Part shown: positions 20,591 to 60,592 of the stretch, one piece after another | Layout: each line of letters begins with the position of its first letter | How positions within the stretch are numbered: position 1 is the stretch's first letter | DNA from: Polaromonas sp. | Lineage (GTDB): Bacteria > Pseudomonadota > Gammaproteobacteria > Burkholderiales > Burkholderiaceae_C | NCBI GenBank assembly: GCA_043766985.1 | Contig: JAYUHM010000234.1 | Location: forward strand, 2,494-66,493 | Reading direction: 5' to 3' | DNA length: 64,000 nt | The notes under the pieces: model-generated | What the model saw: the letters and a program-made list of their open reading frames with translations, nothing else | Databases searched by the model: none | What the model was told of the DNA's origin: nothing | Position numbers and translations under genes: made by a program

Positions 20591-20624
20591 AACGACAAAG
20601 CCCAATAATGTAGACAGCGCAGAC
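20591..20624 (-). repeat. Dispersed repeat, degenerate copy J (intergenic)
   Basis: The minus strand reads GTCTGCGCTGTCTACATTATTGGGCTTTGTCGTT. Confidence 0.45.
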
Positions 20625-20631
20625 AACAAAA

Positions 20632-20666
20632 AAGCCCATCAAGAACTTTAAGTTATTGATGGGCTT
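20632..20666. terminator. Bidirectional rho-independent terminator
   Basis: 11-bp stem AAGCCCATCAA/TTGATGGGCTT flanked by an A-run (left) and a T-rich run (right). It lies between the LacI gene and tRNA-Asn. Confidence 0.7.
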
Positions 20667-20674
20667 GATATTTT

Positions 20675-20788: not shown

Positions 20789-22951
20789 TTAAAGGCTAAC
20801 GTTCAAACCGACGCGAACAGTGCGCTCTTGCTGGGGGAACAGGTACACATGGCCGAACTGGAAAGGCGATTCTTTGAAGAATTGCTTGTTGAGCAGGTTG
20901 TCAATACCCAGCGTCCAGGTGGCCTGGGCTGTGCCCATTTTGTGGCCATAGCTCAGGCCAGCGTCTACGCGCGTCCAGGCGGGCAGGGTGATGCTGCCGT
21001 CGGGCAGCACGCTGCGCTTGCCTTCGTGCGAGAGGTGGGCGTTTGCGGCCAGGCCGGGCAAGCTGGCGAAGCGGTAGCCTGCGTTCAGGCGGGCAATCGC
21101 GTTGGGCACGTTGGTGGGGCGTTGGCCGTTCAGCGCCGTGTTAACAACGGCATCTTGCTGCGTGGCGCGGATGGTCGATACAGAGCCGCCTAGCTGCCAA
21201 GAGCCTAGCTGGCACTGGGCGGTGGCTTCCAGGCCTTGGTGGCGCTGTTGGCCGTCAAACTCAACGGTGCCGCCCGAGTCGACGGCCAGTGGTCGAGTGA
21301 TACTGAACCATGCCAGGCTCCACTGCACATCAGCCATGTTGGACTTGATGCCCAGCTCGGTTTGGCGGCTGCGCAAAGCAGGCAATGGCTGACCCGCTTT
21401 GGCACCGTAAGCCGGCAAATTAGGCACTACACGCGACTCAATACCATGGCCGTGGCTGGCGTAGAGCAACGTGTTAGGCGCTGCCTGAAAGCCGATGGCT
21501 GCCCATGGCGTGTTGATGCTCTGGCTGTACTGGGTGCTAACGGTGGGGTTGCTGGTAGCGCGGTTAAGTGCGGTGTGGCGCAGGCCTAGCCAGGTGCTGA
21601 ACTGGGTGTTCCACTGGATGGCGTCTGATACTGATAGCTCGGTGGAGCGGTTGTCGCGTTGGGTGTAATCGGCTAAGGGGCTCGGGTCGGCAGCAACTTG
21701 CGTGGGCGTGAACAGATTGAGGGTGCCTACAGGGTTGAAGGCGTTCATTTCGCCGCGCTCTTTGTAGTTGCTGCGCAATATGCCTAAGCTGAGGTCGTGC
21801 TTGATGCCTGCAGTGTCCAGCTTGCCTCTCAGTTGCAATTGCAGGGCGTTGGTCGTGCGGCGTTCGTTTTCGCTGCGGAAGTCATAGAGGTCGTAGTCGC
21901 CGTTGGCGGCGTATCTGTCACATGCACCTACGCCATAACAGTCAGCGCCAAACGGAAAAGCCACGCGGTCTTGCGACTTCAGCCGCTGCGTACCCACTTG
22001 CGCAGACCAGCGCCAGTCATTGCTCAGCGCCTGCTCAAAGCGCAAACTGGCCGTGGTGCCTTGCAGCTCTACAGGCAAGCTCCAAGGCTGGGTGTTGATG
22101 TTGATGCGCGGGTTGGCTGCTGGCAATGTGTTGCCTAGCAGGCTCAGGCCGGGCACGCTGGGCTGGCTGCGCCTGGAGTATTCCACCTCGGCCTCCAGCA
22201 GGCTGTCTTTGCCGATGCGCCAGTCCATGGCCAAGGCGGCAAGCTCGCGATTGCCTTTGGTGCTGGGGGTGGGTGTATTGAGTTTTTCAGCCGCTACGTT
22301 AAAGCGGTAGCCAAACACGTCGTCATTGCCAAATCTGCCGCCTAAATCGGCAGAAGCCCCTAATGCGCCGCCACTGGCCGCTTCAATTTTGATAGTGCGT
22401 AGTGGCTGTGCCGTGGGCCGCTTAACAGCATAGTTAACCAAACCACCGGGCGCGCTGGTGCCGGCCTGGATACCGCTGGTGCCTTTGAGAATTTCTACGC
22501 GCTCTTTGTTGTCCAGCGGGATAAAGGTCTCGGCGCTGATGGGCAAACCCTCGCGGCGGTAGTTAAATTTGTTGTCCAGTACAAAGCCGCGTACCGTGGC
22601 GTAGTCCCAGTAACCGATGGCGTTGTAGGCGTCAGACGTGGAGGCGTCCAGTTTGATGACGTCGGCCAAACGCTTGGCACCCAGGGCGTTGATCTGCTGC
22701 GCGCCAATGACGGTGGTGCTGATAGGTGTGCGCTGCAACGGCGCGTCGCCAAAGCCCGTAATGTCGCTTTGCGCGTTGGCCGTGGGTGCGGAGATGGTGA
22801 CGGGTTTAAGCGTCGCCTCGTTGGCCGCTGCCGGGCTGGCGGGGGCTGCAGGCGTGGTTTGCGCTGAGGCTGTGTTGGCTATTAAAATAATAGCAGCTTG
22901 TGCTATTAAACAGAGGGCAGGAGCCTTGTTTGGTTTATAAAAATGTGTCAT
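20789..22951 (-). CDS. TonB-dependent outer-membrane receptor, probably for thiamine or a thiamine precursor
   Basis: 720-aa ORF with a signal peptide, a plug domain (VEILKGTSGIQAGTSAPGGLVNY), a beta-barrel and a terminal aromatic-type end. A TPP riboswitch lies in its leader. Confidence 0.85.
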   Translation of the reverse strand: MTHFYKPNKAPALCLIAQAAIILIANTASAQTTPAAPASPAAANEATLKPVTISAPTANAQSDITGFGDAPLQRTPISTTVIGAQQINALGAKRLADVIKLDASTSDAYNAIGYWDYATVRGFVLDNKFNYRREGLPISAETFIPLDNKERVEILKGTSGIQAGTSAPGGLVNYAVKRPTAQPLRTIKIEAASGGALGASADLGGRFGNDDVFGYRFNVAAEKLNTPTPSTKGNRELAALAMDWRIGKDSLLEAEVEYSRRSQPSVPGLSLLGNTLPAANPRININTQPWSLPVELQGTTASLRFEQALSNDWRWSAQVGTQRLKSQDRVAFPFGADCYGVGACDRYAANGDYDLYDFRSENERRTTNALQLQLRGKLDTAGIKHDLSLGILRSNYKERGEMNAFNPVGTLNLFTPTQVAADPSPLADYTQRDNRSTELSVSDAIQWNTQFSTWLGLRHTALNRATSNPTVSTQYSQSINTPWAAIGFQAAPNTLLYASHGHGIESRVVPNLPAYGAKAGQPLPALRSRQTELGIKSNMADVQWSLAWFSITRPLAVDSGGTVEFDGQQRHQGLEATAQCQLGSWQLGGSVSTIRATQQDAVVNTALNGQRPTNVPNAIARLNAGYRFASLPGLAANAHLSHEGKRSVLPDGSITLPAWTRVDAGLSYGHKMGTAQATWTLGIDNLLNKQFFKESPFQFGHVYLFPQQERTVRVGLNVSL
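22886..22926 (+). repeat. Dispersed repeat, copy A (inside the TonB receptor signal-peptide codons)
   Basis: AATAATAGCAGCTTGTGCTATTAAACAGAGGGCAGGAGCC, read on the gene strand as LIAQAAIILIA. Confidence 0.7.
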
Positions 22952-23061
22952 AACGTGCTTTCAAGGCGTTACAACAGGTCGGCATGCGGAGCGGCTACCC
23001 CAGACAGCTACGAGAATGCGGCTGCGCGGGTGCGAGCGGTAGAGAAACCACCCAACTCATA

Positions 23062-23152: not shown

Positions 23153-23191
23153 GCTTTGTTGCCAAAGCAGCGTGTATTTTAAAGGGAAAAT

Positions 23192-23241: not shown

Positions 23242-24342
23242 TCAATCAAACACCGGCGACTCCACACCCAGCACCTTGTGCAGCTTGGGCGAGGTGGTGG
23301 TGTATTGCAAATGCACCTTCTTGTCCGGGAAGATGAACGGCATGGAGCCAAAAGCGGCCAACGCGCATTCGTGGAAGCCACTCAGGATGAGCTTCTTTTT
23401 GCCGGGGTAGGTGTTGATGTCGCCCACGGCGAAGATGCCGGGGGTGTTGGTGCTGAACTTCTCGGTGTCCACCTTGAGCTGCTTACGCTCGATCTCCAGG
23501 CTCCAGTGGGCAATCGGGCCCAGCTTGGGGGACAGGCCGAAGAAGACCAGCAGCATGTCTAGCGGCATCAGGCGGGTTACGCCATCGCCGCCGGTTACTT
23601 TCACGCCGGTCATCTTGCCGTCTTTTTCTTCGATGTCGGTGATCTGGCCGACGGTAAACTGCATTTCGTGCGCGTCGCACATGGCTTTCATTTTGGCTAC
23701 GCTGGCTGGCGCGGCCTTGAAGCCATCGCGGCGGTGCAGCAAGATGACGGATTCGGCTTTGTTCGGGCCTTCCTGCGCAAAGTTCAGCGCCCAGTCCAGG
23801 GCCGAGTCGCCACCGCCGACGATGACGAGGTTTTTGTCTTTAAACTGCTCTGGGCTGCGCACGCGGTAATGCAACTGCGTGTCTTGGTAAGCCTCAATAC
23901 CATCGACCTTGAGTGTGCGCGGCTGAAAGGCACCTACGCCAGCGGCGATGAAAATGGTTTTGGTGAGAAACTTGGTGCCCTTGCTGGTCTCGACGAAGAA
24001 GCGGCCATCAGTTTGCTTTTCTACCGTGGTGACTTCTTGGCCATAGTGAAAGGTCGCGCCAAAAGGGGCGATCTGCTTGAGCAGGCTGTCGGTCAGCTCT
24101 TTGCCAGTGCACACCGGCACGGCAGGAATGTCGTAGATGGGCTTGTCAGGGTACAGCTCTATGCACTGGCCACCGGGGTAGGCCAGGCTGTCGATGACGT
24201 GGGCCTTCACCTCCAGCAATCCCAGTTCAAACACCTGAAACAAGCCGACCGGGCCTGCACCTATGATGACCGCATCGGTCTCGATAGGGCCGTCATGCTG
24301 CGCGGCGGTGTTGATGACTTCTTGATTCAATTGTGGTTCCAT
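23242..24342 (-). CDS. Ferredoxin-NADP(+) reductase, thioredoxin-reductase-like type
   Basis: 366-aa ORF with an FAD motif ([10 protein letters not shown]), an NADPH motif ([11 protein letters not shown]) and [19 protein letters not shown], typical of TrxR-like FNRs. Confidence 0.75.
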
Positions 24343-27074: not shown

Positions 27075-27823
27075 GCGGCCTCCGCAATGGGAATTATCTT
27101 TGATGTCTTGGCGGAGTCTACGTGCAGGCCACATTCTTTGGCAGCCTCTTGCTCCCACCACCAGCGGCCAGAGCGAATGTCTTCACCTAGGGTAACGGCG
27201 CGCGTGCAGGGCGCGCAGCCGATGCTGGGGTAAAACTGGTCGTGCAGCGCGTTATAGGGCACTTTGCGGGTGGCGATGTAGTGCCACACGTCGCCGTTGG
27301 TCCAATCGACCAAGGGGTTGACTTTGGCGCGCAACGGTTGCTCTTCGATACCCAGCACTTCGGCCCGGGCGTTGGACTGCTCGCGGCGCAGGCCGGTGAT
27401 CCAGGCTTTTTTGCCCTCCAGGGCAATGTCCAGCGGTACCATTTTGCGGATGTCGCAGCAGGCTTTGCGCAGTTCGATGGTTTTGTACATCGCCTCAGGG
27501 CCGTTAGCCGCTTCAAACGCTTGGGCCACTGCAGCTTCGGGTTCATACACGCGCACCACGCGGTCGATGCCGTAGGTGGTTTGCACTGTGGCGAGTAAGG
27601 CCAAGGTTTCTGCATGCAATTTTCCGGTTTGCAACACAAACACTTCACTGTCCAGCTGCAAGGCGTGCAGCAAATCGGTGATGACCATGTCCTCGGCGCC
27701 CAGGCTGGAGGCTTGGGTGATGGGTTGAAACCGTTCGGTCGCGCTGCGCAGCAGGGCCTCAGTGGCGGCCAGCTTGGCTGCAAAATCTGCCGATGGTTTG
27801 GCGTACAGGCTGATGGCGCTCAT
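27071..27823 (-). CDS. cysH: Adenylyl-sulfate (APS) / PAPS reductase, Fe-S-cluster type
   Basis: ECGLH motif plus the CC (KACCDIRK) and CxxC (GCAPCTRA) cysteines typical of 4Fe-4S APS reductases. Confidence 0.85.
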   Translation of the reverse strand: MSAISLYAKPSADFAAKLAATEALLRSATERFQPITQASSLGAEDMVITDLLHALQLDSEVFVLQTGKLHAETLALLATVQTTYGIDRVVRVYEPEAAVAQAFEAANGPEAMYKTIELRKACCDIRKMVPLDIALEGKKAWITGLRREQSNARAEVLGIEEQPLRAKVNPLVDWTNGDVWHYIATRKVPYNALHDQFYPSIGCAPCTRAVTLGEDIRSGRWWWEQEAAKECGLHVDSAKTSKIIPIAEAA

Positions 27824-28221
27824 GCTGCAGCCCTCGCAAACCCGGGCTGTGCGTGTGCGGCATCGCCTTGGTAAAAGCCTGCGTACTGGGTTAAGAGTGC
27901 TTGGCCATGCGCCGCGTCTTGGTCATCGCGCAGCACTGCACTGCTAAAGCCAGTGCGCTGCATTTGCACCAGCTGGTCAATCAGCACGTCGCCGGTAGCG
28001 CGAATCTCACCTTTGAAGCCATGGCGACGGCGCAGTTGCACGGCCTGGCTGTAGGCGCGGCCATCGCTGAACTTGGGGAAGTGCAGCTCAACCGCCTGCG
28101 CGCTGGCAAGCTGCTCTTGCAGGGTGTCTACATCGGTGTCATTGCTGATTGTTATGGTATTTTGGCCTGCAGCCGCCTGTTCAACAGCACAAGCTGCTAT
28201 TAAATTTATAGTTTGTGACAT
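27820..28221 (-). CDS. DUF934 protein associated with sulfite reduction
   Basis: Conserved FPKFSDGRAYSQAVQLRRRHGFKGEIRATGDVLIDQL block and an AAGGAG RBS. The first ~20 codons are encoded by a copy of the dispersed repeat. Confidence 0.75.
   Translation of the reverse strand: MSQTINLIAACAVEQAAAGQNTITISNDTDVDTLQEQLASAQAVELHFPKFSDGRAYSQAVQLRRRHGFKGEIRATGDVLIDQLVQMQRTGFSSAVLRDDQDAAHGQALLTQYAGFYQGDAAHAQPGFARAAA
28164..28205 (-). repeat. Dispersed repeat, copy B (first codons of the DUF934 gene)
   Basis: The minus strand reads AATAGCAGCTTGTGCTGTTGAACAGGCGGCTGCAGGCC, encoding LIAACAVEQAAAGQ. Confidence 0.7.
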
Positions 28222-28233: not shown

Positions 28234-30096
28234 TTAAACTGCCAGCGCTTCTTCATGGGTTTTGGCAAAGCGGGCGCTGTTGGCGGCTGCTTTGAACGGC
28301 TCCATGCCTACGCGGCGCAGGGTGTCGATGAAGGTTTCGTAGGCCGCGTGGGCGCTAGCAGACTCTTTGACCACACGTTGCTTTTTGTACTCGGTAAGCA
28401 CGGCGTCTATCACTTCCACCACTTCGGCAGCGCTGAACGACGGGCCCACCACTTTGCCCGCTACGGGCGCACCGCTCAGGGCAGAACCGTCGGAGCCGCC
28501 CAAGGTAATTTGGTACCACTCTTTGCCGTCCTTATCGACACCCAAGATGCCAATATGGCCGCTGTGGTGGTGGCCGCAGGAGTTGATGCAACCACTCATG
28601 TGCAGGTCAATCTGCCCCAGGTCGTCCAGCTCGTCCAGGTCTTGGTAGCGGGCGGTGATAGCTTCAGCTATCGGCAGGCTGCGGGCATTGGCCAGGGCGC
28701 AAAAATCACCGCCGGGGCAGGCGATCATGTCGCTCAGCAAGTGGATGTTGGGTTTGGCAAAACCCGCCTTGCGCGCAGCCAGCCACAGGGCGGGCAGTTG
28801 GTCGCAGTTCACCCAAGGCAGCAGCAGGTTTTGGTCATGGGTAACGCGCACTTCTCCTTCGCTGAACTGGTCCGCCAGATCGGCTGCGGCCAGCAGTTGC
28901 TCGGCAGTGGCGTCGCCGGGGGCGTAGCACAGGCGTTTAAACGACAGCGTGACGGCGCGCAGGTTGGGGTTGGCGTGCGCGGTAACGTTGCGGGTGATCC
29001 AGCGGGTGAACTCGGTGTCGTCTTCAGCGGCGGCTTTGAGCACGTTGCTCACCTTGGCAGCTACTTTATCAATAGCTGGCTGTGCACACTCTGCATGGGC
29101 TGGTGGCACAAAAGAGGCTGCAACGCGATCAAACTCGGCCTGGGTGATGGTGTGCGGCGCGCCGTCGTCCTTGAGGATGCGGGCAAACTCGGCCTCGACA
29201 TCGTCAATGTACTTTTGGCCTTCGGCCTTGACCAAAATCTTGATGCGTGCTTTGTAGATGTTGTCACGACGGCCGTACAGGTTGTAGACGCGGATGATGG
29301 CCTCGGAGTAATTGAGAATTTGGTTCCACGGCAAAAACTCCCGTACCACGGTGCCGATGATGGGCGTGCGGCCCATGCCGCCGCCCACTAGCACTTTAAA
29401 GCCAATGTCACCAGGAGCGACACCTTGCGCCGGGTCACCCTCTGTAGCGCGCACCAGATGCAAGCCCACGTCGTGCCACGCGGTGGCAGCGCGGTCTTCT
29501 TTAGCGCCTGTTACGGCAAACTTGAACTTGCGCGGCAGAAATGCAAACTCAGGGTGCAGGGTGCTCCACTGGCGCAAGATTTCGCAAAACGGGCGCGGGT
29601 CGGCAATCTCGTCCACAGCAATACCGGCCAGCTCGTCGCTGGTGATGTTGCGGATGCAGTTGCCGCTGGTTTGAATGCCGTGCATGTTGACGCTGGCCAG
29701 CAAGTCCATCACATCGGCGCTTTTGTCCAAAGGAATCCAGTTGAACTGCACGTTTTGGCGGGTAGTGAAGTGGCCGTAACCCTTGGTGAGCTGAACGCCT
29801 TTGCCTGAGAGTTTGGCTTGGCCATCGACAGCGGCTTTGAACACCTCGTTCGAGGGTTGGTCGTATTCCGCCGCTATTTTGGCCATTACGCGCAGTTGCG
29901 CGGCCGACATTTCGCCATAAGGCACGGCCACACGTAGCATGGGCGCGTAGCGCTGCACGTACCAGCCGTTTTGCAGGCGCAGGGGGCGAAACTCGTCATC
30001 GCCCAGCTTGCCTGCCAGGTTACGTTCAAGCTGGTCGCGGTACTGCGCGGCGCGTTGTTTAACGAACTGTTTGTCGAAGTCGGTGTATTGGTACAT
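28234..30096 (-). CDS. cysI: Sulfite reductase hemoprotein (nitrite/sulfite reductase family)
   Basis: 620-aa ORF with siroheme/4Fe-4S cysteines (ACPGGDFC ... MSGCINSCGHHH) and two NIR_SIR ferredoxin-like repeats. Confidence 0.85.
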   Translation of the reverse strand: MYQYTDFDKQFVKQRAAQYRDQLERNLAGKLGDDEFRPLRLQNGWYVQRYAPMLRVAVPYGEMSAAQLRVMAKIAAEYDQPSNEVFKAAVDGQAKLSGKGVQLTKGYGHFTTRQNVQFNWIPLDKSADVMDLLASVNMHGIQTSGNCIRNITSDELAGIAVDEIADPRPFCEILRQWSTLHPEFAFLPRKFKFAVTGAKEDRAATAWHDVGLHLVRATEGDPAQGVAPGDIGFKVLVGGGMGRTPIIGTVVREFLPWNQILNYSEAIIRVYNLYGRRDNIYKARIKILVKAEGQKYIDDVEAEFARILKDDGAPHTITQAEFDRVAASFVPPAHAECAQPAIDKVAAKVSNVLKAAAEDDTEFTRWITRNVTAHANPNLRAVTLSFKRLCYAPGDATAEQLLAAADLADQFSEGEVRVTHDQNLLLPWVNCDQLPALWLAARKAGFAKPNIHLLSDMIACPGGDFCALANARSLPIAEAITARYQDLDELDDLGQIDLHMSGCINSCGHHHSGHIGILGVDKDGKEWYQITLGGSDGSALSGAPVAGKVVGPSFSAAEVVEVIDAVLTEYKKQRVVKESASAHAAYETFIDTLRRVGMEPFKAAANSARFAKTHEEALAV

Positions 30097-32633: not shown

Positions 32634-32668
32634 CTTACTGTGCCCTGCTCTATTGGGCTTTTGGCATA
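32624..32668 (+). repeat. Dispersed repeat, copy C (stop codon and 3' flank of the second response-regulator gene)
   Basis: AAATTTATAGCTTACTGTGCCCTGCTCTATTGGGCTTTTGGCATA. Confidence 0.65.
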
Positions 32669-32685
32669 AACGATAGAGAAATACG

Positions 32686-33132: not shown

Positions 33133-33148
33133 GGTGAGTTCAACTTCT

Positions 33149-37499: not shown

Positions 37500-37540
37500 G
37501 CATGGGTAGGCGCAAAATTAACGCAATGCATATGCTATAT

Positions 37541-37590
37541 ATAAAATAGCACCTTGTGCTTTGCTCTATTGGGCTGGTGCCGTATTTTTA
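37541..37590 (+). repeat. Dispersed repeat, copy E (intergenic)
   Basis: ATAAAATAGCACCTTGTGCTTTGCTCTATTGGGCTGGTGCCGTATTTTTA. Confidence 0.7.
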
Positions 37591-37614
37591 TATAAATTCG
37601 GGTTTATTGCCGCT

Positions 37615-41108: not shown

Positions 41109-41154
41109 AGCTGCTACCGCAATGCTATAAAGGGCAGCAAAGGTAGTCGACGGC

Positions 41155-49562: not shown

Positions 49563-51368
49563 CTAGGGGAGCTTGAACACATGGACAGCACCACCCTTCG
49601 CGGTGAACTTTGGTAGATCTGCGGTCACGCCAGGAATGCCGAATGCTGCGTAGGGATCGTCTACATCAAGGTTTCCGGACACTACAGCACCCAGCAGGCC
49701 GCCGACACCCGAGTAAACGGCCACACGCTGCTTGCCATCAGGGCCGGTGAAAGTTATCGGGCTGCCGATGATGCCCGATGGCAGCTGCGTTTGGAAAAGC
49801 ACCTTGCCGCTCGTCGCATCCACCGCCTTCAGCCACCGGTCCAACGTGCCGTAGAACACCAGATTACCAGCCGTTGCGAGGACGCCGCTGTACAGTGGGA
49901 AGCGCTCTGGGATGCTCCAAATTTTTGTACCCTTCACGGCATCCCAGGCGATGAGCTCGCCACGAACGCCGCTGGGCCCCGTCTTCATCGTTGTGCTGGC
50001 CCCAACATAGGGCGTGCCCTGGATGTAGTTGACTTTCAGCGGCTCGGTGTCGGCACATACGTCCATGCTGGGAATGTAGAACAGGCCCGTGGAAGGCGAG
50101 AAAGCAGCAGGTTCAATATCTTTGCCTCCCGGAGGTGCGGGGCAGATGTCCTTGGTGACCTCGCCCTCACGGGGGATCTTGGCCGGGTTTAAAACCGGCG
50201 ATCCACTCACCAAGTCGATGCGATCAGCCCAGTTCACCGGAACGAATGGTTTGGCTACCAACACCTCACCTGTTCTGCGGTCCATCGTGTAGGCAAACCC
50301 GTTCTTGTTGAAATGCACGATAAGCTGACGTACCGCGCCATTGAATGGCAGGTCGACCACGATGTTCTCGTTGACGGTGTCGTAGTCCCATGCGTCGTGA
50401 GGTGTCATCTGGTACGCCCAGACGGCTTGGCCCGTATCGGGATTGCGCGCAAAGATGGTCGATGACCATTTGTTGTCACCGGGCCGGATGTCCGGGTTCC
50501 AGGGAGCGGGGTTGGATGTACCTTCAAACAGCAGGTTGAGCTGAGGATCGTAAGTTAACCATCCCCAGCGCGTGCCGCCCCCTTGCGTCCACAATGTGCC
50601 GGGCCATGTCGTCTGGCCCAGATTGGTTCCCCTATCCTTGGCGTAGAAAGGGTGGAAGCCGTTGCCGATCAACACGTCGGCATCCGGGCCGGTACCCCAG
50701 GCGCGCCATACCTCGCGCCCCGTGTCAACGTTCAATGCGGCAAGCCAACCACGCACGCCCAGTTCGGCGCCGCTGTTGCCAACGAACACTTTGTCGCCGA
50801 CCACGAGCGGAGCCATCACCATGGTCTGCCCCGAGCGCGGGTCTCCCAGATTGGTTCGCCACACTTGGCGCCCGGTTGCCGCATCGACGGCAACGGTTGT
50901 GTTGTTAAGCGCGTTGTAGATAATCTTGCCGTTGGCAAAGACGGCACCGCGGTTGACGATATCGCAGCACGCTTGGCCTATCGCGAACTGGTTTGGTGCG
51001 GGACTGAAGACCCAGCGGGTCTGGCCGGGGCGGGTCAGGTCCAGTGCGAACAGCCTGTTGGGAAACGGACCCACGACATACATGGTGTTCCCCACCACCA
51101 GGGGCGCGCCTTGATGCCCCGCCCTGACACCCGTGGTGAACTGGAACTCGTGGGTGATGCCAGCGACATTGCTGGCGTTGATCTGCGAGAGCGAACTGAA
51201 ACGCGTACCTTGGGCAGTTCCCGCGGGCGTTGTCCATTCGGCGCCTGCGGCCTGCGCCCATGCGGGGCCGTGCGGCACTAAGCTGGCCGCGAGCAGCAGC
51301 ATGGGGCCGAGAAGTCTTGCACTGCGAAGACTGGAAAGCAGTTTGAGCGTGATCACATGAGCCTCCAT
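49563..51368 (-). CDS. PQQ-dependent methanol/ethanol-family dehydrogenase, lanthanide-type (XoxF/PedH-like)
   Basis: Eight-bladed propeller repeats, vicinal Cys pair (GQACCDIVNRG) and HDAWDYD with the extra Asp (codons at 50379-50387). Signal peptide follows the ATG at 51368 (or 51380); the track start at 51497 is a spurious extension. Confidence 0.85.
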   Translation of the reverse strand: MEAHVITLKLLSSLRSARLLGPMLLLAASLVPHGPAWAQAAGAEWTTPAGTAQGTRFSSLSQINASNVAGITHEFQFTTGVRAGHQGAPLVVGNTMYVVGPFPNRLFALDLTRPGQTRWVFSPAPNQFAIGQACCDIVNRGAVFANGKIIYNALNNTTVAVDAATGRQVWRTNLGDPRSGQTMVMAPLVVGDKVFVGNSGAELGVRGWLAALNVDTGREVWRAWGTGPDADVLIGNGFHPFYAKDRGTNLGQTTWPGTLWTQGGGTRWGWLTYDPQLNLLFEGTSNPAPWNPDIRPGDNKWSSTIFARNPDTGQAVWAYQMTPHDAWDYDTVNENIVVDLPFNGAVRQLIVHFNKNGFAYTMDRRTGEVLVAKPFVPVNWADRIDLVSGSPVLNPAKIPREGEVTKDICPAPPGGKDIEPAAFSPSTGLFYIPSMDVCADTEPLKVNYIQGTPYVGASTTMKTGPSGVRGELIAWDAVKGTKIWSIPERFPLYSGVLATAGNLVFYGTLDRWLKAVDATSGKVLFQTQLPSGIIGSPITFTGPDGKQRVAVYSGVGGLLGAVVSGNLDVDDPYAAFGIPGVTADLPKFTAKGGAVHVFKLP

Positions 51369-51437
51369 AAAAAACCTCATGCTGCGCCGCTGGCTTCCTG
51401 GGGTATGTGCAGTAACCCACATAATCTGGTAACAGTT

Positions 51438-51482
51438 TGCAAAGAAAAGGAGTGCAAAGAAAGGGAGTGCAAAGACAACTGG
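51438..51482. promoter_or_regulatory. Three tandem 15-bp direct repeats upstream of the PQQ dehydrogenase gene
   Basis: TGCAAAGAAAAGGAG / TGCAAAGAAAGGGAG / TGCAAAGACAACTGG, located 70-115 nt upstream of the start codon. Confidence 0.5.
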
Positions 51483-51547
51483 GGCGGACTTAATCAAACG
51501 AAAGAAAGTAGCGTCAATCTTGCTAGGCGGGCGTAATTTTTACTACG

Positions 51548-51597
51548 AATTAAATAGCTGCTTGTGTAATATTCCATAGGCTCTTCAAACGATTTTT
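51548..51597 (+). repeat. Dispersed repeat, copy G (intergenic)
   Basis: AATTAAATAGCTGCTTGTGTAATATTCCATAGGCTCTTCAAACGATTTTT. Confidence 0.65.
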
Positions 51598-51653
51598 CTT
51601 AACTGAGTGCACTCAGTCATTTCATAGTTACGCAGTCAACTGCCCGACGGGTA

Positions 51654-53645
51654 CTAGACTGTATGCGGCAAAAAAGCAGGCATCGCGCGCAGGCGCTGCA
51701 TCAGGCCATGCTGCAGCGCAAACACCGTCAATTGTTCGGCGTAGGGCACCAGCATCTGGTCGTCTTGCGCCAGGGGCACGCCTAGCAGCTGGGCCATTTG
51801 CTCTTTGGCAATCTGGCCGTGAGCCAGCAGTGCGTCGGTGATGTGCAGCAGCAAGCCGGCATCGGCTTTGAGCAAGGCCTGCGCACGCGCGTACTGCTGC
51901 ACCAGCAAGGCCTCGATTTCGGCATTGGAGGGGACGACATTGGTGTTGATGTCTCCCTCGGTTTCATGCGTTACATCGGTGCGGCTCAGGCGGCTGCCAA
52001 AACCGTAGTAGCGCACATAGCGCGCGGCCAGGGCGGTGGCGCTTTTAAAGTCGCTCTCGCTGCCGGTCGTGCAGGCCCCTTCGTTAAACACCAAGGCTTC
52101 GGCGGCGCGGCCCGCCAGGCTCACGCACATGCGGTCCAGGCAGTTTTGCTGCGACATGGTCTTCATGCGCACGTAGCTGTTGTAGCCGCCCTCAAACGAG
52201 GCCACGTTGATCTTTACCTCTTGCGGCGCGTGCCCAAACAAGCGGCCATACACCAGGCCATGGCCGGCTTCGTGCACCGCCAGCAGAGCCCGAAAGTCCG
52301 GGCTTGCGCGCTGCTTGAGCTGGTTCAGATCCAGCGGCACAGGGTAGGCCGTGCTGTGCGGGCCGCAGCGCACATGCAAGTGCTGGGTGTTAATGTCCAG
52401 CGACACCTGCAGCGTAGAGCCCGCCTCGATGCCGTGCTCCAGTGCCCATAGCACGGCGTTGACCAGGGGCGCGCTCAAAATGGCGTGTACCGACGAGAAC
52501 AGCGGGCGCGTGCCTTGGGCCGGGAAGACGGCGTTGGCATAAATGCCCGCATAGACCGACTCATCCAACGCAAAGCTCAGGCCGGAGCTGGCCTGCACTT
52601 CATGCACATACTTGCCGCAGGCGCTGCGGATCAAGCGCTCATACGTCGCTTGGTTGAGCGAGGGGTAAATCACATGGTTGTTGCCCATGCGCGCTACCTG
52701 CTCAGGTTTGAAGCGCTCGGCCAGGGCTTTTTTGACGTCAATCACCGACAGCTTTTTCGTCATGGCGTGAAAGATATCGGCATCGGTGTCGCAGTCTTCC
52801 ACCCGGCTGGCCATGCCTTGGTACATTTCGTCCAGGTTGCCCGAGACGATGATCAGCAAACGGCTGTAGTCTGTCTCCCAGGCCTCGCTGGAGGCTTTGA
52901 AGGTCAGCATGCGCTCTTGCAGTTGCTCGGCGCTCCAAGCCATCACTTCTTGCAACGGCTCTTTGAGCTTGAGGCTGTGCTTGAACTCTTGCGCCTGGTA
53001 GGGCGAGAGGTTGAATTTGAGTTTTTTGCTTGCCCCGCCTTCTTTGGAGGAATCGTCTTTGTCTTCACGCTCATCGTCGTAGAGCGACATCGCCAAGGAC
53101 GACTCCAGTTCTTGCAGGAACGACAGCGAGGGCGGCAAACGCCCGTCGGACAGCAACTGCCAAACATCCTGGTAGCGCTTGACCGGCGCGTCTTTGCCTT
53201 GCTCGCTCACCGTGCGAAAGCGCTGGAATTCGTCCAGTACCAGCATGCCGGGCTCGCCTTCTTGCACACCAGACTCGCTCAGCATCGCGCTGATCGAGTC
53301 GGCACTGCGCCTGCTGCTGCCGTTGCTAAAGCCGTCCATTTGCACTTCAACAAAGCGGTCATAAAACCCCAGCTTGTGTGCCAGGCTGCGGGTGAGCTGC
53401 GTTTTACCGGTGCCGGTCAGGCCCCACAGGCACACAATCACCGGGCGGTGAATGATGTGCGGCAGCACATACCAGGCGCGGATAGATTCGATCACGCGGT
53501 CAATGATCTCGTCAATACCAAACAGCTCGGTTTTCAGCTCGGCTGCCACGCTGGCCAGGTGGGCGCTGCGCTGGCGCAGCAGCTCGGCTTGCACCATGGG
53601 CATAGCCATAGAGGTCGTATTCAAATCGTTCTTCATGCTAATCAT
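51654..53645 (-). CDS. Soluble AAA+ ATPase (ClpA/B D2-like) fused to an FtsH-type M41 zinc-metallopeptidase domain
   Basis: Walker A GLTGTGKT (53400-53423), Walker B MLVLDEF, Clp-D2-like blocks (LLIIVSGN, RFKPEQVARMGNNHVIYPSL). The C-terminus has HEAGH (52260-52274) and TGSESDFKSATALAARYV, collinear with the FtsH protease domain. No TM segment. Confidence 0.8.
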   Translation of the reverse strand: MISMKNDLNTTSMAMPMVQAELLRQRSAHLASVAAELKTELFGIDEIIDRVIESIRAWYVLPHIIHRPVIVCLWGLTGTGKTQLTRSLAHKLGFYDRFVEVQMDGFSNGSSRRSADSISAMLSESGVQEGEPGMLVLDEFQRFRTVSEQGKDAPVKRYQDVWQLLSDGRLPPSLSFLQELESSLAMSLYDDEREDKDDSSKEGGASKKLKFNLSPYQAQEFKHSLKLKEPLQEVMAWSAEQLQERMLTFKASSEAWETDYSRLLIIVSGNLDEMYQGMASRVEDCDTDADIFHAMTKKLSVIDVKKALAERFKPEQVARMGNNHVIYPSLNQATYERLIRSACGKYVHEVQASSGLSFALDESVYAGIYANAVFPAQGTRPLFSSVHAILSAPLVNAVLWALEHGIEAGSTLQVSLDINTQHLHVRCGPHSTAYPVPLDLNQLKQRASPDFRALLAVHEAGHGLVYGRLFGHAPQEVKINVASFEGGYNSYVRMKTMSQQNCLDRMCVSLAGRAAEALVFNEGACTTGSESDFKSATALAARYVRYYGFGSRLSRTDVTHETEGDINTNVVPSNAEIEALLVQQYARAQALLKADAGLLLHITDALLAHGQIAKEQMAQLLGVPLAQDDQMLVPYAEQLTVFALQHGLMQRLRAMPAFLPHTV

Positions 53646-54523: not shown

Positions 54524-54560
54524 GGACTATCCGGCGACTACTGCTTCTACGCATGCATTC

Positions 54561-54605
54561 AGGCGGTAGCCCAATAAAATACTGCGTAAGCAGCTCCTAA
54601 ATAAG
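54561..54605 (-). repeat. Dispersed repeat, degenerate copy K (just upstream of the chimeric ORF)
   Basis: The minus strand reads CTTATTTAGGAGCTGCTTACGCAGTATTTTATTGGGCTACCGCCT. Confidence 0.5.
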
Positions 54606-54682
54606 TAGTGAATAAATCGCACCACGGATACCATAAACTATCCCCACAACGCAACCGCACCAAGCCCCAACACAGCCCCACC

Positions 54683-55771
54683 ATGAGTTACGTCATCCAC
54701 ATCTGGCAAACCCCCATCCCCACCAGCGTGCTGCAAGCCGACAAAATTTGCGACCGCCTGCAAGACAAAGAGGGGCGGCAAAACCCCAAGTTCATCGAAC
54801 TGGCCAAACGGCTGAGCCAGCGCTATCCCTGTCGCGGCCAAATGACCGGGGACGAAGACGATGAAGAAGGCGTATGGTTGGATGAGCCCTTAGACGGCAT
54901 CAGCCCCAGCCCAGTGCTTGCCCTGGGTATACGCAGCGACTATGTGATAGAGGTGATGCCCTTCGTTGCCGTGACCGCCAATGCACTGGGGCTGACCGTG
55001 TATGACACCCAAGTAGGCGAATGTTACTTACCCAGTGGCCAAGTGCTGACCATGCCAGGACAGGCATCAGTGGGCTTGCAGGAGGAGGTAGACCCTGAGC
55101 TCATTTATTCTTCTGACCAGATTATCAAAATAGCCGCTGAGCACAGTATTGAGTTCTATAAAAAATACGGGTACAAGTATTCTCGTAAAGGCAATTGCTT
55201 TGTGAAAAAGCACGATGGTTTTTATCATTCAATTACATTGCAGGGCGGGGGGGGCGTTGCTGCAAGCCACACCATCTGCATTACAAAAGGATTGCACCTT
55301 GTTTCGCACATAGCAAATCTAAGCTATGTAAAACCTGAGCCTGCGCAGGTGATTGAGCTACGTTATGATCAGGACAATTATCCAAAAACATGGCCCAAAG
55401 TGAATTGCCCTTACCGAGCTGAGCGGGGTGATATTGCGGTGCGTTCAGTGTCTGAAGTTAGGTCTGCCATGGATAAAATAATGGTTTATGAAGAGCAAAC
55501 CTTCATGCCTCTCATGAGTGAAATTCAAACGCTTGAAAGTGTTCATAAGTTTCTGCACAATCCTGCCTTTAAGATATTGTCGAATTCAAGGGTGGTAAAC
55601 TATTATGGGCAATTGCTGATTGCTTATTTGGTAAAACCAGACAATTTGGATGCACTCATTGTCAAAATTCGAGCTTCAATTTCGAAAGACGAAATGCCAC
55701 AAATGGCTCTTTCATTTTTCGACAAAACAGTAGAATTGATCAAACTTGAACTTGCGTCTGCATCGGTCTAG
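54683..55771 (+). CDS. Hypothetical two-domain protein with a sharp internal GC shift
   Basis: The ATG at 54683 (MSYVIHIWQTPIP...) is preferred to the GTG at 54608. The first ~140 codons are GC-rich and the last ~225 codons are about 35-40% GC. The C-terminal KKYGYKYSRKGNCFVKKHDGFYHSITLQ pattern resembles DUF4304-like immunity-type domains, which is a weak call. Confidence 0.55.
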   Translation: MSYVIHIWQTPIPTSVLQADKICDRLQDKEGRQNPKFIELAKRLSQRYPCRGQMTGDEDDEEGVWLDEPLDGISPSPVLALGIRSDYVIEVMPFVAVTANALGLTVYDTQVGECYLPSGQVLTMPGQASVGLQEEVDPELIYSSDQIIKIAAEHSIEFYKKYGYKYSRKGNCFVKKHDGFYHSITLQGGGGVAASHTICITKGLHLVSHIANLSYVKPEPAQVIELRYDQDNYPKTWPKVNCPYRAERGDIAVRSVSEVRSAMDKIMVYEEQTFMPLMSEIQTLESVHKFLHNPAFKILSNSRVVNYYGQLLIAYLVKPDNLDALIVKIRASISKDEMPQMALSFFDKTVELIKLELASASV

Positions 55772-56031: not shown

Positions 56032-56052
56032 TACTTCTGCACAATAGGGCTT

Positions 56053-56625: not shown

Positions 56626-56695
56626 TTCAAGAACCTTGGGGCGTGTCCAAATAGGACACGGCGATTAGCGATAATCACGGGTTGCCCCACGCCCC

Positions 56696-59600
56696 ATGCT
56701 AGACATTACCTTCCCCGAATCCCTGCCCGTATCCGCTCGCCGTGACGAGATTGCCACCGCTATCCGAGACCACCAAGTGGTGATTGTGTGTGGCGAGACG
56801 GGGTCGGGCAAGACCACACAGTTGCCCAAGATTGCTTTGGCTTTAGGCCGCGGCAAATTGAATTACCCGCCTGGAAGGGGCAAGCTGATTGGCCACACCC
56901 AGCCGCGCCGCATTGCTGCTACCTCGGTGGCCAAGCGGATTGCGGAGGAACTGAAGACACCGCTGGGCGATGTGGTGGGCTACAAGGTGCGCTTCCAGGA
57001 CCGGCTCTCGCGGGACGCGTCTGTCAAGCTGATGACCGACGGTATTTTGCTGGCCGAGACGCAGGGCGACCCGGATTTGAAGGCGTACGACACGCTGATC
57101 ATTGACGAGGCGCATGAGCGGTCTTTGAACATTGACTTTCTGCTAGGGTATTTGAAGCAGTTGTTGCCGCGCAGGCCAGACCTCAAAATCATCGTGACCT
57201 CGGCCACCATTGATGCGGATCGGTTTGCCCGGCATTTTGAATCCAGGAATGGCCCGGCTCCGGTCATCATGGTCAGTGGCCGCATGTTCCCGGTGGAGCA
57301 GCGCTACAGGCCGTTTGAAGAATCGCGTGACTACGATTTGAACTGTGCGATAGCCGACGCAACCGATGAGCTGTGGATGGGCGGCGGTGGCGGCGACATC
57401 CTGGTCTTTCTCCCCGGCGAGCGCGAAATCCGTGAGGCAGCCGACCATTTGCGCAAGCACCTGGCGCACCAGCCATTGCACCGCAATGCGGATGTGATCC
57501 CGCTGTTTGCGCGGCTTAGTCAGCAAGAGCAAGACCGCGTGTTCGAAGTGGGCAACGGCAAACGTATCGTGCTGTCTACCAATGTGGCCGAAACTTCGCT
57601 CACGGTGCCGGGTATCCGCTACGTGATTGACGCAGGCACAGCGCGCGTGAAGCGCTATAGTTTCAGGAATAAAGTAGAGCAGCTGCTGGTCGAGCCAATT
57701 GCGCAGGCGGCCGCTAACCAGCGCTCGGGCCGGTGCGGGCGGGTGGCGGATGGTATTTGCATTCGCCTGTATGAGCAGAAAGACTTTGACGCACGGCCTA
57801 AATTTACCGACCCGGAGATTCTGCGTTCATCGCTAGCCGGCGTGATCTTGCGCATGAAGGCGCTGCGCCTGGGCCATGTGGAAGACTTCCCCTTTATCGA
57901 GCCCCCGCAGCGCCGCGCCATTGCCGATGGCTATGACCTGCTGCAAGAGCTGGGCGCGGTGGACGAGTACAACGAGCTGACCGCCCTGGGCGCGGAGCTA
58001 TCGCGCCTGCCGCTAGACCCGCGGGTGGGCCGCATGATCATCGAGGCACGCAGCCGCAATGCGCTGGACGAGGTGCTGATCATCGCCAGCGCGCTGAGCG
58101 TGCAAGATGTGCGCGACCGCCCGATGGAGGCGCAGCAGCAGGCCGATGAAGCGCACAAGAAGTTTGACGATGAGAAGAGTGAATTTACCGGCTACCTGAA
58201 GCTGTGGAAATGGATCAACGCAGCGCGGGGTGGCGACGGCAAAGAGCACAAACTCAGCAACCGCCAATACGAACAACTCCTACGCCAAAACTTCGTCAAT
58301 ATCCGCCGCGTGCGCGAATGGCGCGATATTTATTCGCAGTTGCACACCGTCGTCACCGAACACAAATGGCAGCTCAATTCTCAGCCTGCGAGTTACGAGC
58401 AACTGCACCTGTCCATGCTGGCAGGCCTGCTGGGCAACATCGGCTGGAAGCTGGAAGACGAAGACGTGTATCTGGGCGCGCGGGCGATCAAGTTTTACCG
58501 CCATCCGGGGGCGAATCTGAGCAAAAAGCCGGGCCGCTGGATTGTGGCGGCTGAGCTGGTGGATACGTCGCGCCTCTTTGGAAGGGGCATCGCCGCGATA
58601 GAGCCGCAGTGGATTGAACAAGTAGCCGGCCACCTTTTAAAGAAGCAATTGCTCGACCCGCATTGGGAAAAGAAGAGCGCCGAGGTCATCGCGCTGGAGC
58701 GCGCCACGCTGTACGGCATCGTCATCTACAGTGGCCGCCGCGTCAACTACAGCAAGGTAGACCCCGTGGCCGCGCGCGAGGTGTTTATCCGCGAAGCGCT
58801 GGTAGGCAACGAGTGGGAGACCAAGCTGCCCTTCCTGGCGCAGAACGAAAAACTGCTCAAACAGGTGGAAGACATCGAGCACAAATCGCGCCGCCAAGAC
58901 GTGCTGGTAGATGACGAGCTGATCTTTGCCTACTACGACCAGCAGATTCCTGCCGTGGTGTGCAGTGGCTATCTGCTGGAGCAGTGGTACCGCGAGGAGA
59001 GCAAAAAGAACCCCAAGCTCTTGATGCTCACCCGCGAAGAGCTGATGCGCCACGAGGCCGCTGGCATTACCACCCAGGCCTTTCCCAAAGTGGTGCGTTT
59101 GGGCGGCGTAGACTGCCGCGCCACCTACCTGCACGAGCCGGGCGATGCCAAAGACGGCCTGACGGTGGAGGTGCCACTGTTTGCGCTGAACCAGGTTCAT
59201 GATGAGCGCTGCGAATGGCTGGTGCCCGGCATGCTGCAAGGCAAAATTTTTGCGTTGATTAAAAGCCTGCACCAGAGGCCCCGCTCGCGCCTGGTGCCAC
59301 TGCCCGACAGCGCGGCGCGTTTCTACGCGGTGCTCAGTGAGCCAACGGCCTTTGGTGCCAGCGGTTTGGTAGATGCGCTGCTCAAGCTGTGCCGCGATGC
59401 CACTGCCGTAGACATCAAGCGCGGCGACTTCAAGCTGGACATGCTGCCGCCCCATTTGTTCATGAACTTCAGAGTGGTAGACGAGCATGGCCGCCAGATG
59501 GGCACGGGGCGCAACCTGGCCGCGCTCAAAGCCGAGCTGGGTGTGCAGGCGCGCGGTGCATTTGCATCGCTGGCGGCTCTGTCTAGTGCGGCCAGCAAAG

Positions 59601-60592
59601 TGCCTAAGGTACTTCTTGATGATGACAATAACCAGCCAAATCAGCCGCAAGCCCAACAGGATATAGCACAAGCTGCTATTAAACATGTAGCAAATGCTAA
59701 TACCCCTGCGTTTCAAGCGGATGCGCGCTACACCGCCTGGACGTTTGGCGAGCTGCCCGAGCTGCTGGAGATCTCTCGCCAATCGGGGCGCGGTGCCAAC
59801 GCCCAAGTGCAAACCTTGATCGGTTTTCCGGCGCTGATAGACCATGGCGATGCCGTGAGCGTAGAAGTGTTTGACGAGCCCGACGTAGCCGCTGCCAAAC
59901 ACCGCGCTGGCCTGCGCCGCCTGTTTGCCTTGCAGATCAAAGACGCGCTCAAATACCTGGAAAAAAATATCCCCGATCTGCAAAAAATGAGCGTCGCTTA
60001 CATGCCGCTCGGCACCAGCGAGGAGCTGAAAAGCCAGATCATTGACGTAGCGCTGGACAAAGCCTTCTTGTTGGACCCGCTGCCAACCAACGCCGACGAC
60101 TTCAAACGCCGCGTCGACGAAGGCCGTGGCCGCCTGACCTTGATAGCCAACGAAGTGGCACGTTTGTGCGGCACTATTTTGACGGAATATGCCGCCGCGG
60201 CCCGCAAGATCAAAGACACCAAAAACGCCCCCGAGGCCACGGCGGACGCGGCCCAGCAGCTGCAGCGCCTGATGCCCAAGCGCTTTTTGACGGCTACTAC
60301 CTTCATCCAGCTGCAGCACTTCCCGCGCTACCTGAAAGCCATCACCCTGCGCCTGGAAAAACACCGCACCGACCCCGTACGCGATGCTTTGCGCCTGAGT
60401 GAGCTAAGACCCCAAGAGCAGCGTTTTGTCCGTCTGCTGGCTGAACGCAAAGGTGTGCTGGATGTTCGCTTGGCCGAGCTGCGCTGGTTGCTGGAAGAGC
60501 TGCGTGTCAGCTTTTTCGCCCAAGAGTTGCGTACGCCGCAGCCTGTCAGCACCAAGCGGCTGGATAAGGTGTGGGCGCAGTTGATGCAGTGA
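56696..60592 (+). CDS. hrpA: ATP-dependent RNA helicase HrpA
   Basis: 1298-aa DEAH-box helicase (GETGSGKTTQ, DEAHERS, SATID, TNVAETSLT, QRSGRCGR) with HA2/OB and HrpA C-terminal regions. It carries an AT-rich in-frame insertion at about 59607-59705. Confidence 0.95.
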   Translation: MLDITFPESLPVSARRDEIATAIRDHQVVIVCGETGSGKTTQLPKIALALGRGKLNYPPGRGKLIGHTQPRRIAATSVAKRIAEELKTPLGDVVGYKVRFQDRLSRDASVKLMTDGILLAETQGDPDLKAYDTLIIDEAHERSLNIDFLLGYLKQLLPRRPDLKIIVTSATIDADRFARHFESRNGPAPVIMVSGRMFPVEQRYRPFEESRDYDLNCAIADATDELWMGGGGGDILVFLPGEREIREAADHLRKHLAHQPLHRNADVIPLFARLSQQEQDRVFEVGNGKRIVLSTNVAETSLTVPGIRYVIDAGTARVKRYSFRNKVEQLLVEPIAQAAANQRSGRCGRVADGICIRLYEQKDFDARPKFTDPEILRSSLAGVILRMKALRLGHVEDFPFIEPPQRRAIADGYDLLQELGAVDEYNELTALGAELSRLPLDPRVGRMIIEARSRNALDEVLIIASALSVQDVRDRPMEAQQQADEAHKKFDDEKSEFTGYLKLWKWINAARGGDGKEHKLSNRQYEQLLRQNFVNIRRVREWRDIYSQLHTVVTEHKWQLNSQPASYEQLHLSMLAGLLGNIGWKLEDEDVYLGARAIKFYRHPGANLSKKPGRWIVAAELVDTSRLFGRGIAAIEPQWIEQVAGHLLKKQLLDPHWEKKSAEVIALERATLYGIVIYSGRRVNYSKVDPVAAREVFIREALVGNEWETKLPFLAQNEKLLKQVEDIEHKSRRQDVLVDDELIFAYYDQQIPAVVCSGYLLEQWYREESKKNPKLLMLTREELMRHEAAGITTQAFPKVVRLGGVDCRATYLHEPGDAKDGLTVEVPLFALNQVHDERCEWLVPGMLQGKIFALIKSLHQRPRSRLVPLPDSAARFYAVLSEPTAFGASGLVDALLKLCRDATAVDIKRGDFKLDMLPPHLFMNFRVVDEHGRQMGTGRNLAALKAELGVQARGAFASLAALSSAASKVPKVLLDDDNNQPNQPQAQQDIAQAAIKHVANANTPAFQADARYTAWTFGELPELLEISRQSGRGANAQVQTLIGFPALIDHGDAVSVEVFDEPDVAAAKHRAGLRRLFALQIKDALKYLEKNIPDLQKMSVAYMPLGTSEELKSQIIDVALDKAFLLDPLPTNADDFKRRVDEGRGRLTLIANEVARLCGTILTEYAAAARKIKDTKNAPEATADAAQQLQRLMPKRFLTATTFIQLQHFPRYLKAITLRLEKHRTDPVRDALRLSELRPQEQRFVRLLAERKGVLDVRLAELRWLLEELRVSFFAQELRTPQPVSTKRLDKVWAQLMQ
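59635..59686 (-). repeat. Dispersed repeat, copy H (inside hrpA)
   Basis: The minus strand reads TTTAATAGCAGCTTGTGCTATATCCTGTTGGGCTTGCGGCTGATTTGGC. It is 33/35 identical to copy F (59644-59678 versus 41701-41735) and is read on the gene strand as QPQAQQDIAQAAIKH. Confidence 0.85.

Follow-up and report, generated by a model that had tools for sequence, protein, structure and literature searches.

The stretch analysed here, referred to as the window, comprises 64,000 nucleotides of a Polaromonas sp. contig (JAYUHM010000234.1), and the homologues of its HrpA and CysI proteins place it in the Comamonadaceae. In these two proteins the closest named relatives (Rhodoferax, Hylemonella, Variovorax and Ramlibacter) show 75–79% amino-acid identity, and many metagenome relatives show 85–96%. 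The subject of this text is a short DNA repeat that is scattered over the window. An earlier note on this DNA had claimed a dispersed repeat family, and the family proved to be real. The core AATAGCAGCTTGTGCTAT, searched with up to three mismatches, was found seven times in the window against 0.03 occurrences expected. A seven-copy profile additionally recovered 54558–54614 and 32613–32669, and weakly 41091–41142 and 29059–29107, and iterated nhmmer profiles led to an ungapped element of 71 columns (alignment A1). An independent profile, built from 195 metagenome copies only and without any window sequence, recovered all 12 window copies with E-values from 2e-10 to 8e-3, while 20 shuffled windows gave a mean of 0.8 matches at E ≤ 1. 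In the source genome the density is about one copy per 4–5 kb, and it is similar throughout the Comamonadaceae.

The profile searches returned all eight clear copies (A–H) listed in the earlier note, as well as its degenerate copy near 54561 (54547–54617, with E = 2e-6 though outside the training set). Its candidates at 20591 and 24751–24775 had no match, and the one at 39775–39800 reached merely E = 0.76–7.8 across the profile searches. Three copies lie beyond that earlier set, at 29052–29122, 41087–41157 and 157–227. Pfam agreed with the host genes that had been assigned (TonB receptor, DUF934, NAD-binding/SDR, DsbB and HrpA) and gave a CysI-like reductase, an FAD oxidoreductase and RmuC as hosts of the added copies. 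The 12 copies, with the open reading frames (ORFs) that they touch, are as follows.

157..227, minus strand: weak copy, antisense in the N-terminal region of RmuC (ORF 90..1415, plus; RmuC by Pfam); E = 0.0038, and 0.0083 with the independent profile
22870..22940, plus strand: copy, antisense in the signal-peptide region of a TonB-dependent receptor (20789..22951, minus); E = 1.3e-10
28150..28220, minus strand: copy, sense, about residues 4–22 of a DUF934 protein (27820..28221, minus), before the Pfam domain; E = 2.7e-10
29052..29122, plus strand: degenerate copy, antisense in the inter-domain linker of a CysI-like sulfite/nitrite reductase (28234..30096, minus); E = 3.3e-8, and 5e-8 with the independent profile
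32610..32680, plus strand: copy straddling the stop codon of a response-regulator-like gene (31869..32633, plus); E = 4.4e-9
33148..33218, plus strand: copy, antisense in the C-terminal tail (...QQNVARAAITSVAI, then the stop) of a NAD-binding/SDR-like protein (33149..34039, minus); E = 5.3e-11
37526..37596, plus strand: intergenic copy between the convergent genes for DUF3224 (37107..37499, plus) and TraB/GumN (37615..38553, minus); E = 2.5e-10
41087..41157, plus strand: degenerate copy between an Iron_traffic gene and the start of an FAD oxidoreductase gene (39930..41204, minus); E = 8.5e-8
41680..41750, plus strand: copy, sense, in transmembrane helix 2 (TM2) of DsbB, directly after the CPMC motif; E = 1.9e-15
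51534..51604, plus strand: intergenic copy between genes for a PQQ (pyrroloquinoline quinone) dehydrogenase (49563..51497, minus) and an AAA/M41 protease-like protein (51654..53645, minus); E = 1.6e-7
54547..54617, minus strand: intergenic copy just upstream of ORF 54608..55771; E = 1.1e-11
59629..59699, minus strand: copy, antisense in the hypervariable linker of HrpA (56696..60592, plus), encoding ...QAQQDIAQAAIKHVANA...; E = 2.2e-13

The copy at 54547..54617 is the best window match of the independent profile (E = 2e-10), and the one at 32610..32680 is matched by it in the 5' half only (E = 0.0035). The copy at 51534..51604 is antisense to both of its neighbours, and its 3' half is degenerate. 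In the CysI-like protein the copy encodes ...CAQPAIDKVA..., within a linker that is unaligned to solved structures. The FAD oxidoreductase gene probably starts downstream of its ORF start; the counterpart of the 41087..41157 copy in L018, a contig of a relative, lies 6 nt upstream of the called start of that gene. Copies in L018, L071 and L073, which have the 5' flank in common with this copy, were taken as orthologous to it. A possible 13th, partial copy was seen at 23477–23514 (plus strand, profile columns 23–60, E = 0.008) inside a pyridine-nucleotide oxidoreductase gene (23242..24342, minus).

The element is built from conserved boxes. The family consensus reads TTGCTAT-N7-ATAGCTGCTTGCGCA-N9-GGGGCTAGAGGCC-nATTTG, and the boxes come in the order GCTAY, then RTAGCTGCT with the central box (TTGCGCA in most lineages, with genome-specific variants that are called dialects below), then GGGCTAGAGGCC, with AT-rich spacers between them. 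CTA (columns 10–12), TAGC (22–25) and GC (33–34) are invariant or nearly so in alignment A1. A copy is about 55–70 nt long, with a conserved span of about 50 bp and a logo of about 59 bits, a figure that is inflated by ascertainment. The dyad GCTAY-N7-RTAGC, formed by boxes 1 and 2, was matched 18 times against 0.78 expected and is 23-fold over-represented. A search for half-motif 'proto-sites' gave just three dyad-only matches outside the known copies, which is near chance.

RNAalifold gave no consensus structure (−0.31 kcal/mol), and no covariation was found in the GCTAY/RTAGC dyad, in the 3' tail hairpin or in the quasi-palindrome TTGCGCA/GGGCTA, the Watson-Crick counts being those expected under independence. 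The quasi-palindrome forms a perfect hairpin of 6–7 bp in about 20% of the copies; the majority form has two fixed mismatches. A 7-bp hairpin (AATAGCA/TGCTATT) had been proposed for the core in the earlier note. It is present in some copies of the source genome but absent from the family consensus (ATAGCTGCTTGCGCA), and it shows no covariation. The repeat had no match in Rfam, even at E ≤ 1. A scan for promoter consensus sequences returned counts near the shuffled expectation, and the overlaps with copies were trivial; readings of the element as a sigma-70 or sigma-54 promoter, which came from inspection by eye only, did not fit across dialects and were rejected.

With regard to genes, it was borne out that copies occupy intergenic sites and also lie in frame within well-supported genes, in sense as well as in antisense orientation. 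According to the gene tables, 32 copies out of 48 lie in coding sequence and 16 outside it, which is an approximately threefold intergenic enrichment if about 11% of the genome is assumed to be intergenic. Of 236 copies, 61% have a core that is crossed by an open frame of 150 codons or more, and the independent coding sites comprise 11 sense and 11 antisense cases. The orientation relative to GC skew (28:21) shows no bias, which ruled out a replication polarity of the kind found for Chi or KOPS (FtsK-orienting polar sequences). The host segments are signal peptides or TM helices (TonB receptor, a periplasmic binding protein, RmuC, DsbB TM2), linkers (HrpA, CysI, AmiC, a penicillin-amidase spacer) and protein termini, and some are enzyme cores (PepN, P450, NadD).

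The observation that only stop-free frames are used holds as a matter of usage, but it needs no choice of frame. The consensus has stops (TAG/TAA) in forward frame 1 and reverse frame 0 in six of six genomes checked, with extra frames closed in some dialects, and the 'preferred' reading frames are therefore forced. In the P450 copy of one relative, the TAG is lost and a different frame is used. Antisense coding copies have CTGTTGGG at the place where intergenic copies have CTATTGGG, and the in-frame TAG is thus removed. The encoded peptides look like by-products, adjusted solely for stop avoidance and the local protein context.

The in-frame copies had been likened to the Rickettsia palindromic elements (RPEs), which insert into genes and add a peptide. 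An inserted element of 49–71 nt would be expected to add 16–23 residues. The differences in length from homologues were four residues in DsbB, four in CysI, eight in PepN and three in NadD; the P450 gains 11 residues, an appreciable number that is still below the expected range. The repeat-encoded stretches align with homologous residues of solved homologues or relatives, the segment in DsbB with TM2 of E. coli DsbB. In none of the five proteins was a clean insertion found, and an RPE-like addition of peptide is not what these genes show. A clean empty site was not found either: the sole polymorphic intergenic copy (L018, 9401) lies within an unalignable indel of about 240 nt, without duplication, and at all other covered sites the copy is present in both genomes compared. 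No terminal inverted repeats were found at the ends of the 71-column alignment. The earlier note had held that the insertion view would fail if distant genera encoded the same peptide segments in genomes without the repeat; corresponding segments are indeed encoded by orthologues in other genera, but those genomes also carry the repeat. Taken together, the copies overlay existing coding sequence, with little gain in length, rather than insert into it. The repeat is a sequence motif at the level of DNA, and neither a structured RNA nor a cleanly inserted cassette.

The family is widespread among relatives. It was found in the contigs of all seven relatives (L018; L020 with L023; L021; L022; L024; L025; L026), in L026 as relics only. 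A metagenome scan with the pattern CTAYN7RTAGCTGCTTGCGCA gave at least 120 loci (788 kb, GC 52–72%) with at least 195 copies, and an earlier metagenome scan with the source genome's own dialect had given no matches. An exact 18-mer was tried in a genome contig collection without the source genome and was discarded, as its 17 single matches, in unrelated taxa, equal the chance expectation. Among PLSDB plasmids, the repeat is carried by those of Rhodoferax antarcticus, Polaromonas sp. and a Comamonadaceae bacterium; the phage collection held nothing beyond the integron cassette orfF, described below, and chance matches. The suggestion that the repeat is undescribed for this lineage stands, in that no description was found in the literature searched and there is no Rfam family.

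Two islands stand out in the distribution. About 10 copies were found in an Rhs/type VI secretion system (T6SS) effector-immunity island of L024 (2236–8806; RHS repeats, TseH, Imm58, PIN), where they sit in a composite repeat of 113–115 nt (GGGACTCAGGGTCAGGTCTCCC... plus the element) between small cassettes. The same island has 300-nt segmental duplications of 94–96% identity, and because of the composite repeat and these duplications the dense array was not counted as independent copies. The other island lies in the window at 2823–20543. It is a low-GC stretch of 18 kb (51–53% against 58–60%), bounded by tRNA-Asn (20675–20750, minus), and it encodes beta-glucan utilisation (an ABC transporter, the glycoside hydrolases GH1, GH30, GH81 and GH16, glucokinase and a LacI regulator). 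This stretch adjoining tRNA-Asn looks like an acquired island. It has no repeat copy, against about 4.7 expected (Poisson P of about 0.009), and every copy of the window is located outside 2.8–20.6 kb.

A further property of the repeat emerged when copies were compared both between sites and between genomes. Orthologous sites exist across genera. The hrpA site is occupied in six genomes (besides the window, in L018, L020, L021, L022 and L026) and the DUF934 site in four (with L023, L024 and L025); further orthologous sites are those of the TonB receptor (L023, 19378–19448), dsbB (L018, with a relic in Rhodoferax L026), CysI, a glutathione S-transferase gene and the one next to the Iron_traffic gene. 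Over the 5' flank, box 1 and spacer 1, identity is 0.62–0.93 between copies at the same site in different genomes and 0.32–0.77 between copies at different sites of the same genome. The central box (columns 26–36) behaves in the opposite way, with an identity of 0.71 for the same genome and different sites against 0.60 for the same site and different genomes. Its sequence goes with the genome rather than with the site (permutation p ≤ 0.0005), and 47 independent metagenome contigs gave the same genome effect for spacer 2 and box 4. The outer parts are therefore shown to be inherited with the site, whereas the central 20 nt or so changes in a concerted way in almost every copy of a genome.

Individual columns illustrate this. 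Column 32 is T in nine of 12 and seven of seven copies of the window's clade against three of 73 elsewhere, and GCGC has been replaced by GTGC in 16 of that clade's 19 copies. In another relative, genome B, columns 30–31 are CC in all six full-length aligned copies, and in a seventh, truncated one, against none of 73 elsewhere. These dialect substitutions extend to copies that occupy the same site (hrpA, DUF934 or TonB) in different genomes, and at the DUF934 site they alter the peptide (AACA, AAPA or AGCA). Between genomes, orthologous cores diverge as fast as the coding flanks or faster, yet they match the variant of their own genome, and the NadD copy is close to its own genome's consensus although it lies in a conserved strand of the enzyme. 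No two paralogous sites of the source genome have the same spacer 1. It follows that copying of whole elements is not under way at present, and that a tract of conversion would need to be as short as about 20 nt. Two window copies are off-dialect. The central block of the RmuC copy at 157..227, CTCCCGCG, resembles the dialect of genome B, and that of the copy at 54547..54617, TTACGCAGT, is nearer to the family-wide consensus than to the dialect of the source genome; local coding constraint or DNA imported from relatives could account for both. The concerted behaviour of the dialects appears to be undescribed for Comamonadaceae.

As the best, though tentative, explanation we interpret the repeat as a DNA recognition motif resembling an uptake signal, which a drive acting throughout the genome would maintain at its sites. 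For so many scattered sites to change in parallel would require a factor acting in trans, whose specificity would drift between lineages, together with a directional force that would act on all motif sites of a genome. Competent cells may preferentially take up and recombine motif-bearing DNA, as with DNA uptake signal sequences, and each site would be pushed toward the sequence preferred at the time, as far as the encoded protein allows. Within the Comamonadaceae, Acidovorax and Verminephrobacter have been documented to undergo natural transformation; in that study, DNA from another Acidovorax species gave no detectable transformation (PMC4212676).

Several points weigh against this interpretation. 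With about 50 conserved bp and about 59 bits, the motif is far longer and richer than known uptake signals, and so much common sequence fits copying from a single source better than convergence site by site. Its density of about one per 4–5 kb is below that of the uptake signal sequences (USS) and DNA uptake sequences (DUS). An unusual 3' variant, ATTAAACAG, is common to the neighbouring TonB and DUF934 copies and hints at copying or conversion. The Rhs/T6SS accessory island of L024 is densely populated, though largely by segmental duplication, and no competence gene was seen in the 64-kb window.

The rival that fares best is possible though rather unlikely: a selfish, non-autonomous repeat of the type of repetitive extragenic palindromic sequences (REPs) or miniature inverted-repeat transposable elements (MITEs), mobilised in trans, whose genic copies would be old insertions that were later trimmed. 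The uniformity within a genome would then result from replacement by, or short-patch conversion from, an active variant. The high information content and discrete boundaries are those expected of common descent, and the layout is REP-like, with an rTAGC head followed by the quasi-palindrome TTGCGCA...GGGCTA, a perfect hairpin in about 20% of the copies. The threefold intergenic enrichment, the variable presence in intergenic regions of relatives, the subvariant common to two neighbouring copies and the gain of 11 residues in the P450 also agree with it. It is difficult to reconcile with the lack of terminal inverted repeats and target-site duplications, with a single presence/absence case that is no clean insertion, and with a hairpin that has no covariation and two mismatches in its majority form. 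Two thirds of the copies lie in ORFs, unlike families of REPs, bacterial interspersed mosaic elements (BIMEs) or MITEs. Spacer 1 is unique to each site and inherited with it, and the conversion tracts would be about 20 nt long and end 6 nt from this site-specific spacer. About 1 Mb of loci with the repeat yielded no gene for a REP-associated tyrosine transposase (RAYT) or IS200-like transposase, in a weak test that used tblastn with RAYT and IS200 sequences; its one match, inside an EAL-domain gene, was spurious.

Alternatively, the copies may form an array of binding sites for a host chromosomal protein (nucleoid-organising, involved in segregation, or a global regulator), with selection at each site, which we consider unlikely. 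Box-wise conservation with free AT-rich spacers, boxes about 12 bp apart and the 23-fold over-represented dyad GCTAY-N7-RTAGC are what a binding protein would leave, and the orientation is independent of genes and of the direction of replication. Some copies keep their position from genus to genus, including one that in L018 precedes a called start by 6 nt. The sites are found at arbitrary places in unrelated genes, however, and hundreds of sites should freeze the specificity of such a protein, yet the dialects shift between close relatives. The orthologous cores also diverge as fast as their flanks or faster, and no candidate protein was identified.

Templated overwriting appears more doubtful still. 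Here, a nucleic acid acting in trans (retron-like single-stranded DNA or a guide RNA) would anneal via the boxes and rewrite the central 20–35 nt or so at each copy; if true, hundreds of dispersed sites would be rewritten, essential genes included. This would explain why the concerted change is confined to the centre, between boxes usable as homology arms, why genes are overlaid rather than lengthened, and why the NadD copy is near its genome's consensus despite the conserved enzyme strand. Against this, neither a reverse transcriptase nor a retron or guide locus was seen, the homology arms would be short, there is no precedent at hundreds of sites, and the proposal is purely inferential.

A strict RPE-like element, palindromic, mobile and inserted in frame as a peptide module, is very improbable. 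In-frame copies in many genes and in both orientations agree with it. The copies measure about 55–70 nt instead of 100–150, the hairpin is unsupported, none of five proteins has a clean insertion, and orthologous copies evolve in concert with their own genome, which inherited insertions would not be expected to do (this is an expectation only). A structured small RNA or cis-regulatory RNA family can practically be dismissed: some copies are found in 5' regions or between genes, and weak terminator-like hairpins overlap two copies, but there is no consensus fold, no covariation and no Rfam match at E ≤ 1, and the copies occur in both orientations relative to genes and mostly in ORFs.

Some further observations concern the surroundings of the window copies. 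A TPP (thiamine pyrophosphate) riboswitch, whose 57.5 bits exceed the gathering score, was found on the minus strand at 23053–23155, immediately upstream of the gene for the TonB-dependent receptor (20789..22951). The copy in this gene is placed between the riboswitch and the plug domain, that is, downstream of the riboswitch. In L018 (1578–5339; HrpA 96% identical), dsbB, an IS5-like transposase gene, argA and hrpA are adjacent. In the window (45400–56600), about 11 kb separates argA and hrpA, with genes for TctC, an aldolase, the PQQ dehydrogenase, the AAA/M41 protease-like protein and Uma2; this stretch contains two repeat copies, one with a non-native central block.

The repeat also turned up in an integron cassette. 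The globally spread class 1 cassette orfF/gcuF (DUF1010), known from the common dfrA12-orfF-aadA2 array, contains a full copy, CACTGCAAAAACGATAGCTGCTTGCGC...AAGGGCTAGAGGCCAAAAAGACT, which suggests that the cassette came from a Comamonadaceae-type genome. An example is L147 (NC_004464.2, pCTX-M3), where the copy at 2488–2552 is antisense to the annotated ORF. This cassette accounts for about 1,745 of 1,748 plasmid records matched, nearly all of them enterobacterial. Residues 30–52 or so of orfF are a translation of the repeat and match positions 1–22 of the DUF1010 profile, and translations of unrelated genomic copies give sub-threshold DUF1010 matches. Part of DUF1010 may thus be repeat-derived. 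Other Pfam DUFs may also be built partly on repeat translations; the translated copy at L077 3327 (reverse frame) gives, besides DUF1010, a sub-threshold match to DUF7056 (E = 0.014). The orfF copy is a host-specific watermark that bears on the open question of the origin of integron cassettes.

Whatever the mechanism, a DNA motif of about 55 bp can overwrite conserved parts of proteins (DsbB TM2, the NadD strand, signal peptides) and can force amino-acid changes in step throughout a genome. This is relevant to the reading of protein variation, to gene calling and to Pfam families that were built on such sequence, as with DUF1010. If the interpretation as an uptake-signal-like motif is true, an abundant freshwater and soil family would have an uptake-signal-type system whose signal is unusually long and multi-box and has clear dialects. 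To our knowledge, no such system has been found outside Neisseriaceae and Pasteurellaceae. Species barriers to gene exchange in Comamonadaceae would then become directly testable.

Among known repeats, RPEs are palindromic insertions of 100–150 bp; they make the host protein longer and are passed on as insertions. The present repeat resembles them in being dispersed, in frame in unrelated protein genes as well as between genes, and at tolerated places. It differs from them in that no palindrome is supported, the gains are three to eight residues in four proteins and 11 in a fifth, and the central block is concerted. REPs lie nearly always outside genes, often occur in pairs and are associated with a RAYT gene. 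With REPs, BIMEs and REPINs (paired REPs), the repeat has in common its shortness, a possible counterpart (rTAGC) of the GTAG head with a candidate imperfect palindrome after it, genome-specific variants and an implied copy number of hundreds per genome; unlike REPs, it occurs as single copies, about two thirds of them in ORFs, with an unsupported hairpin and with no RAYT in about 1 Mb, by the weak test mentioned. HIP1 of cyanobacteria is a perfect palindrome of 8 bp with more than one copy per gene. It too is an abundant DNA motif within coding regions that is kept at the DNA level, whereas the present repeat is about 55 bp long, non-palindromic overall and far rarer.

The closest parallels are found with DUS of Neisseriaceae and USS of Pasteurellaceae. 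Their cores are 10–12 bp and extend to about 30 bp at most; they have dialects, occupy permissive coding positions without indels and on both strands, are flanked by AT-rich sequence and are scarce in foreign DNA. The present motif, with about 50–60 bp, several boxes and a density about four times lower, departs from them in size and frequency. The likeness consists in many copies per genome on both strands, a large share of which lie in permissive genic places without indels, in conserved blocks beside AT-rich tracts, in lineage dialects that are followed at orthologous sites, and in the absence of copies from an island that was apparently acquired recently.

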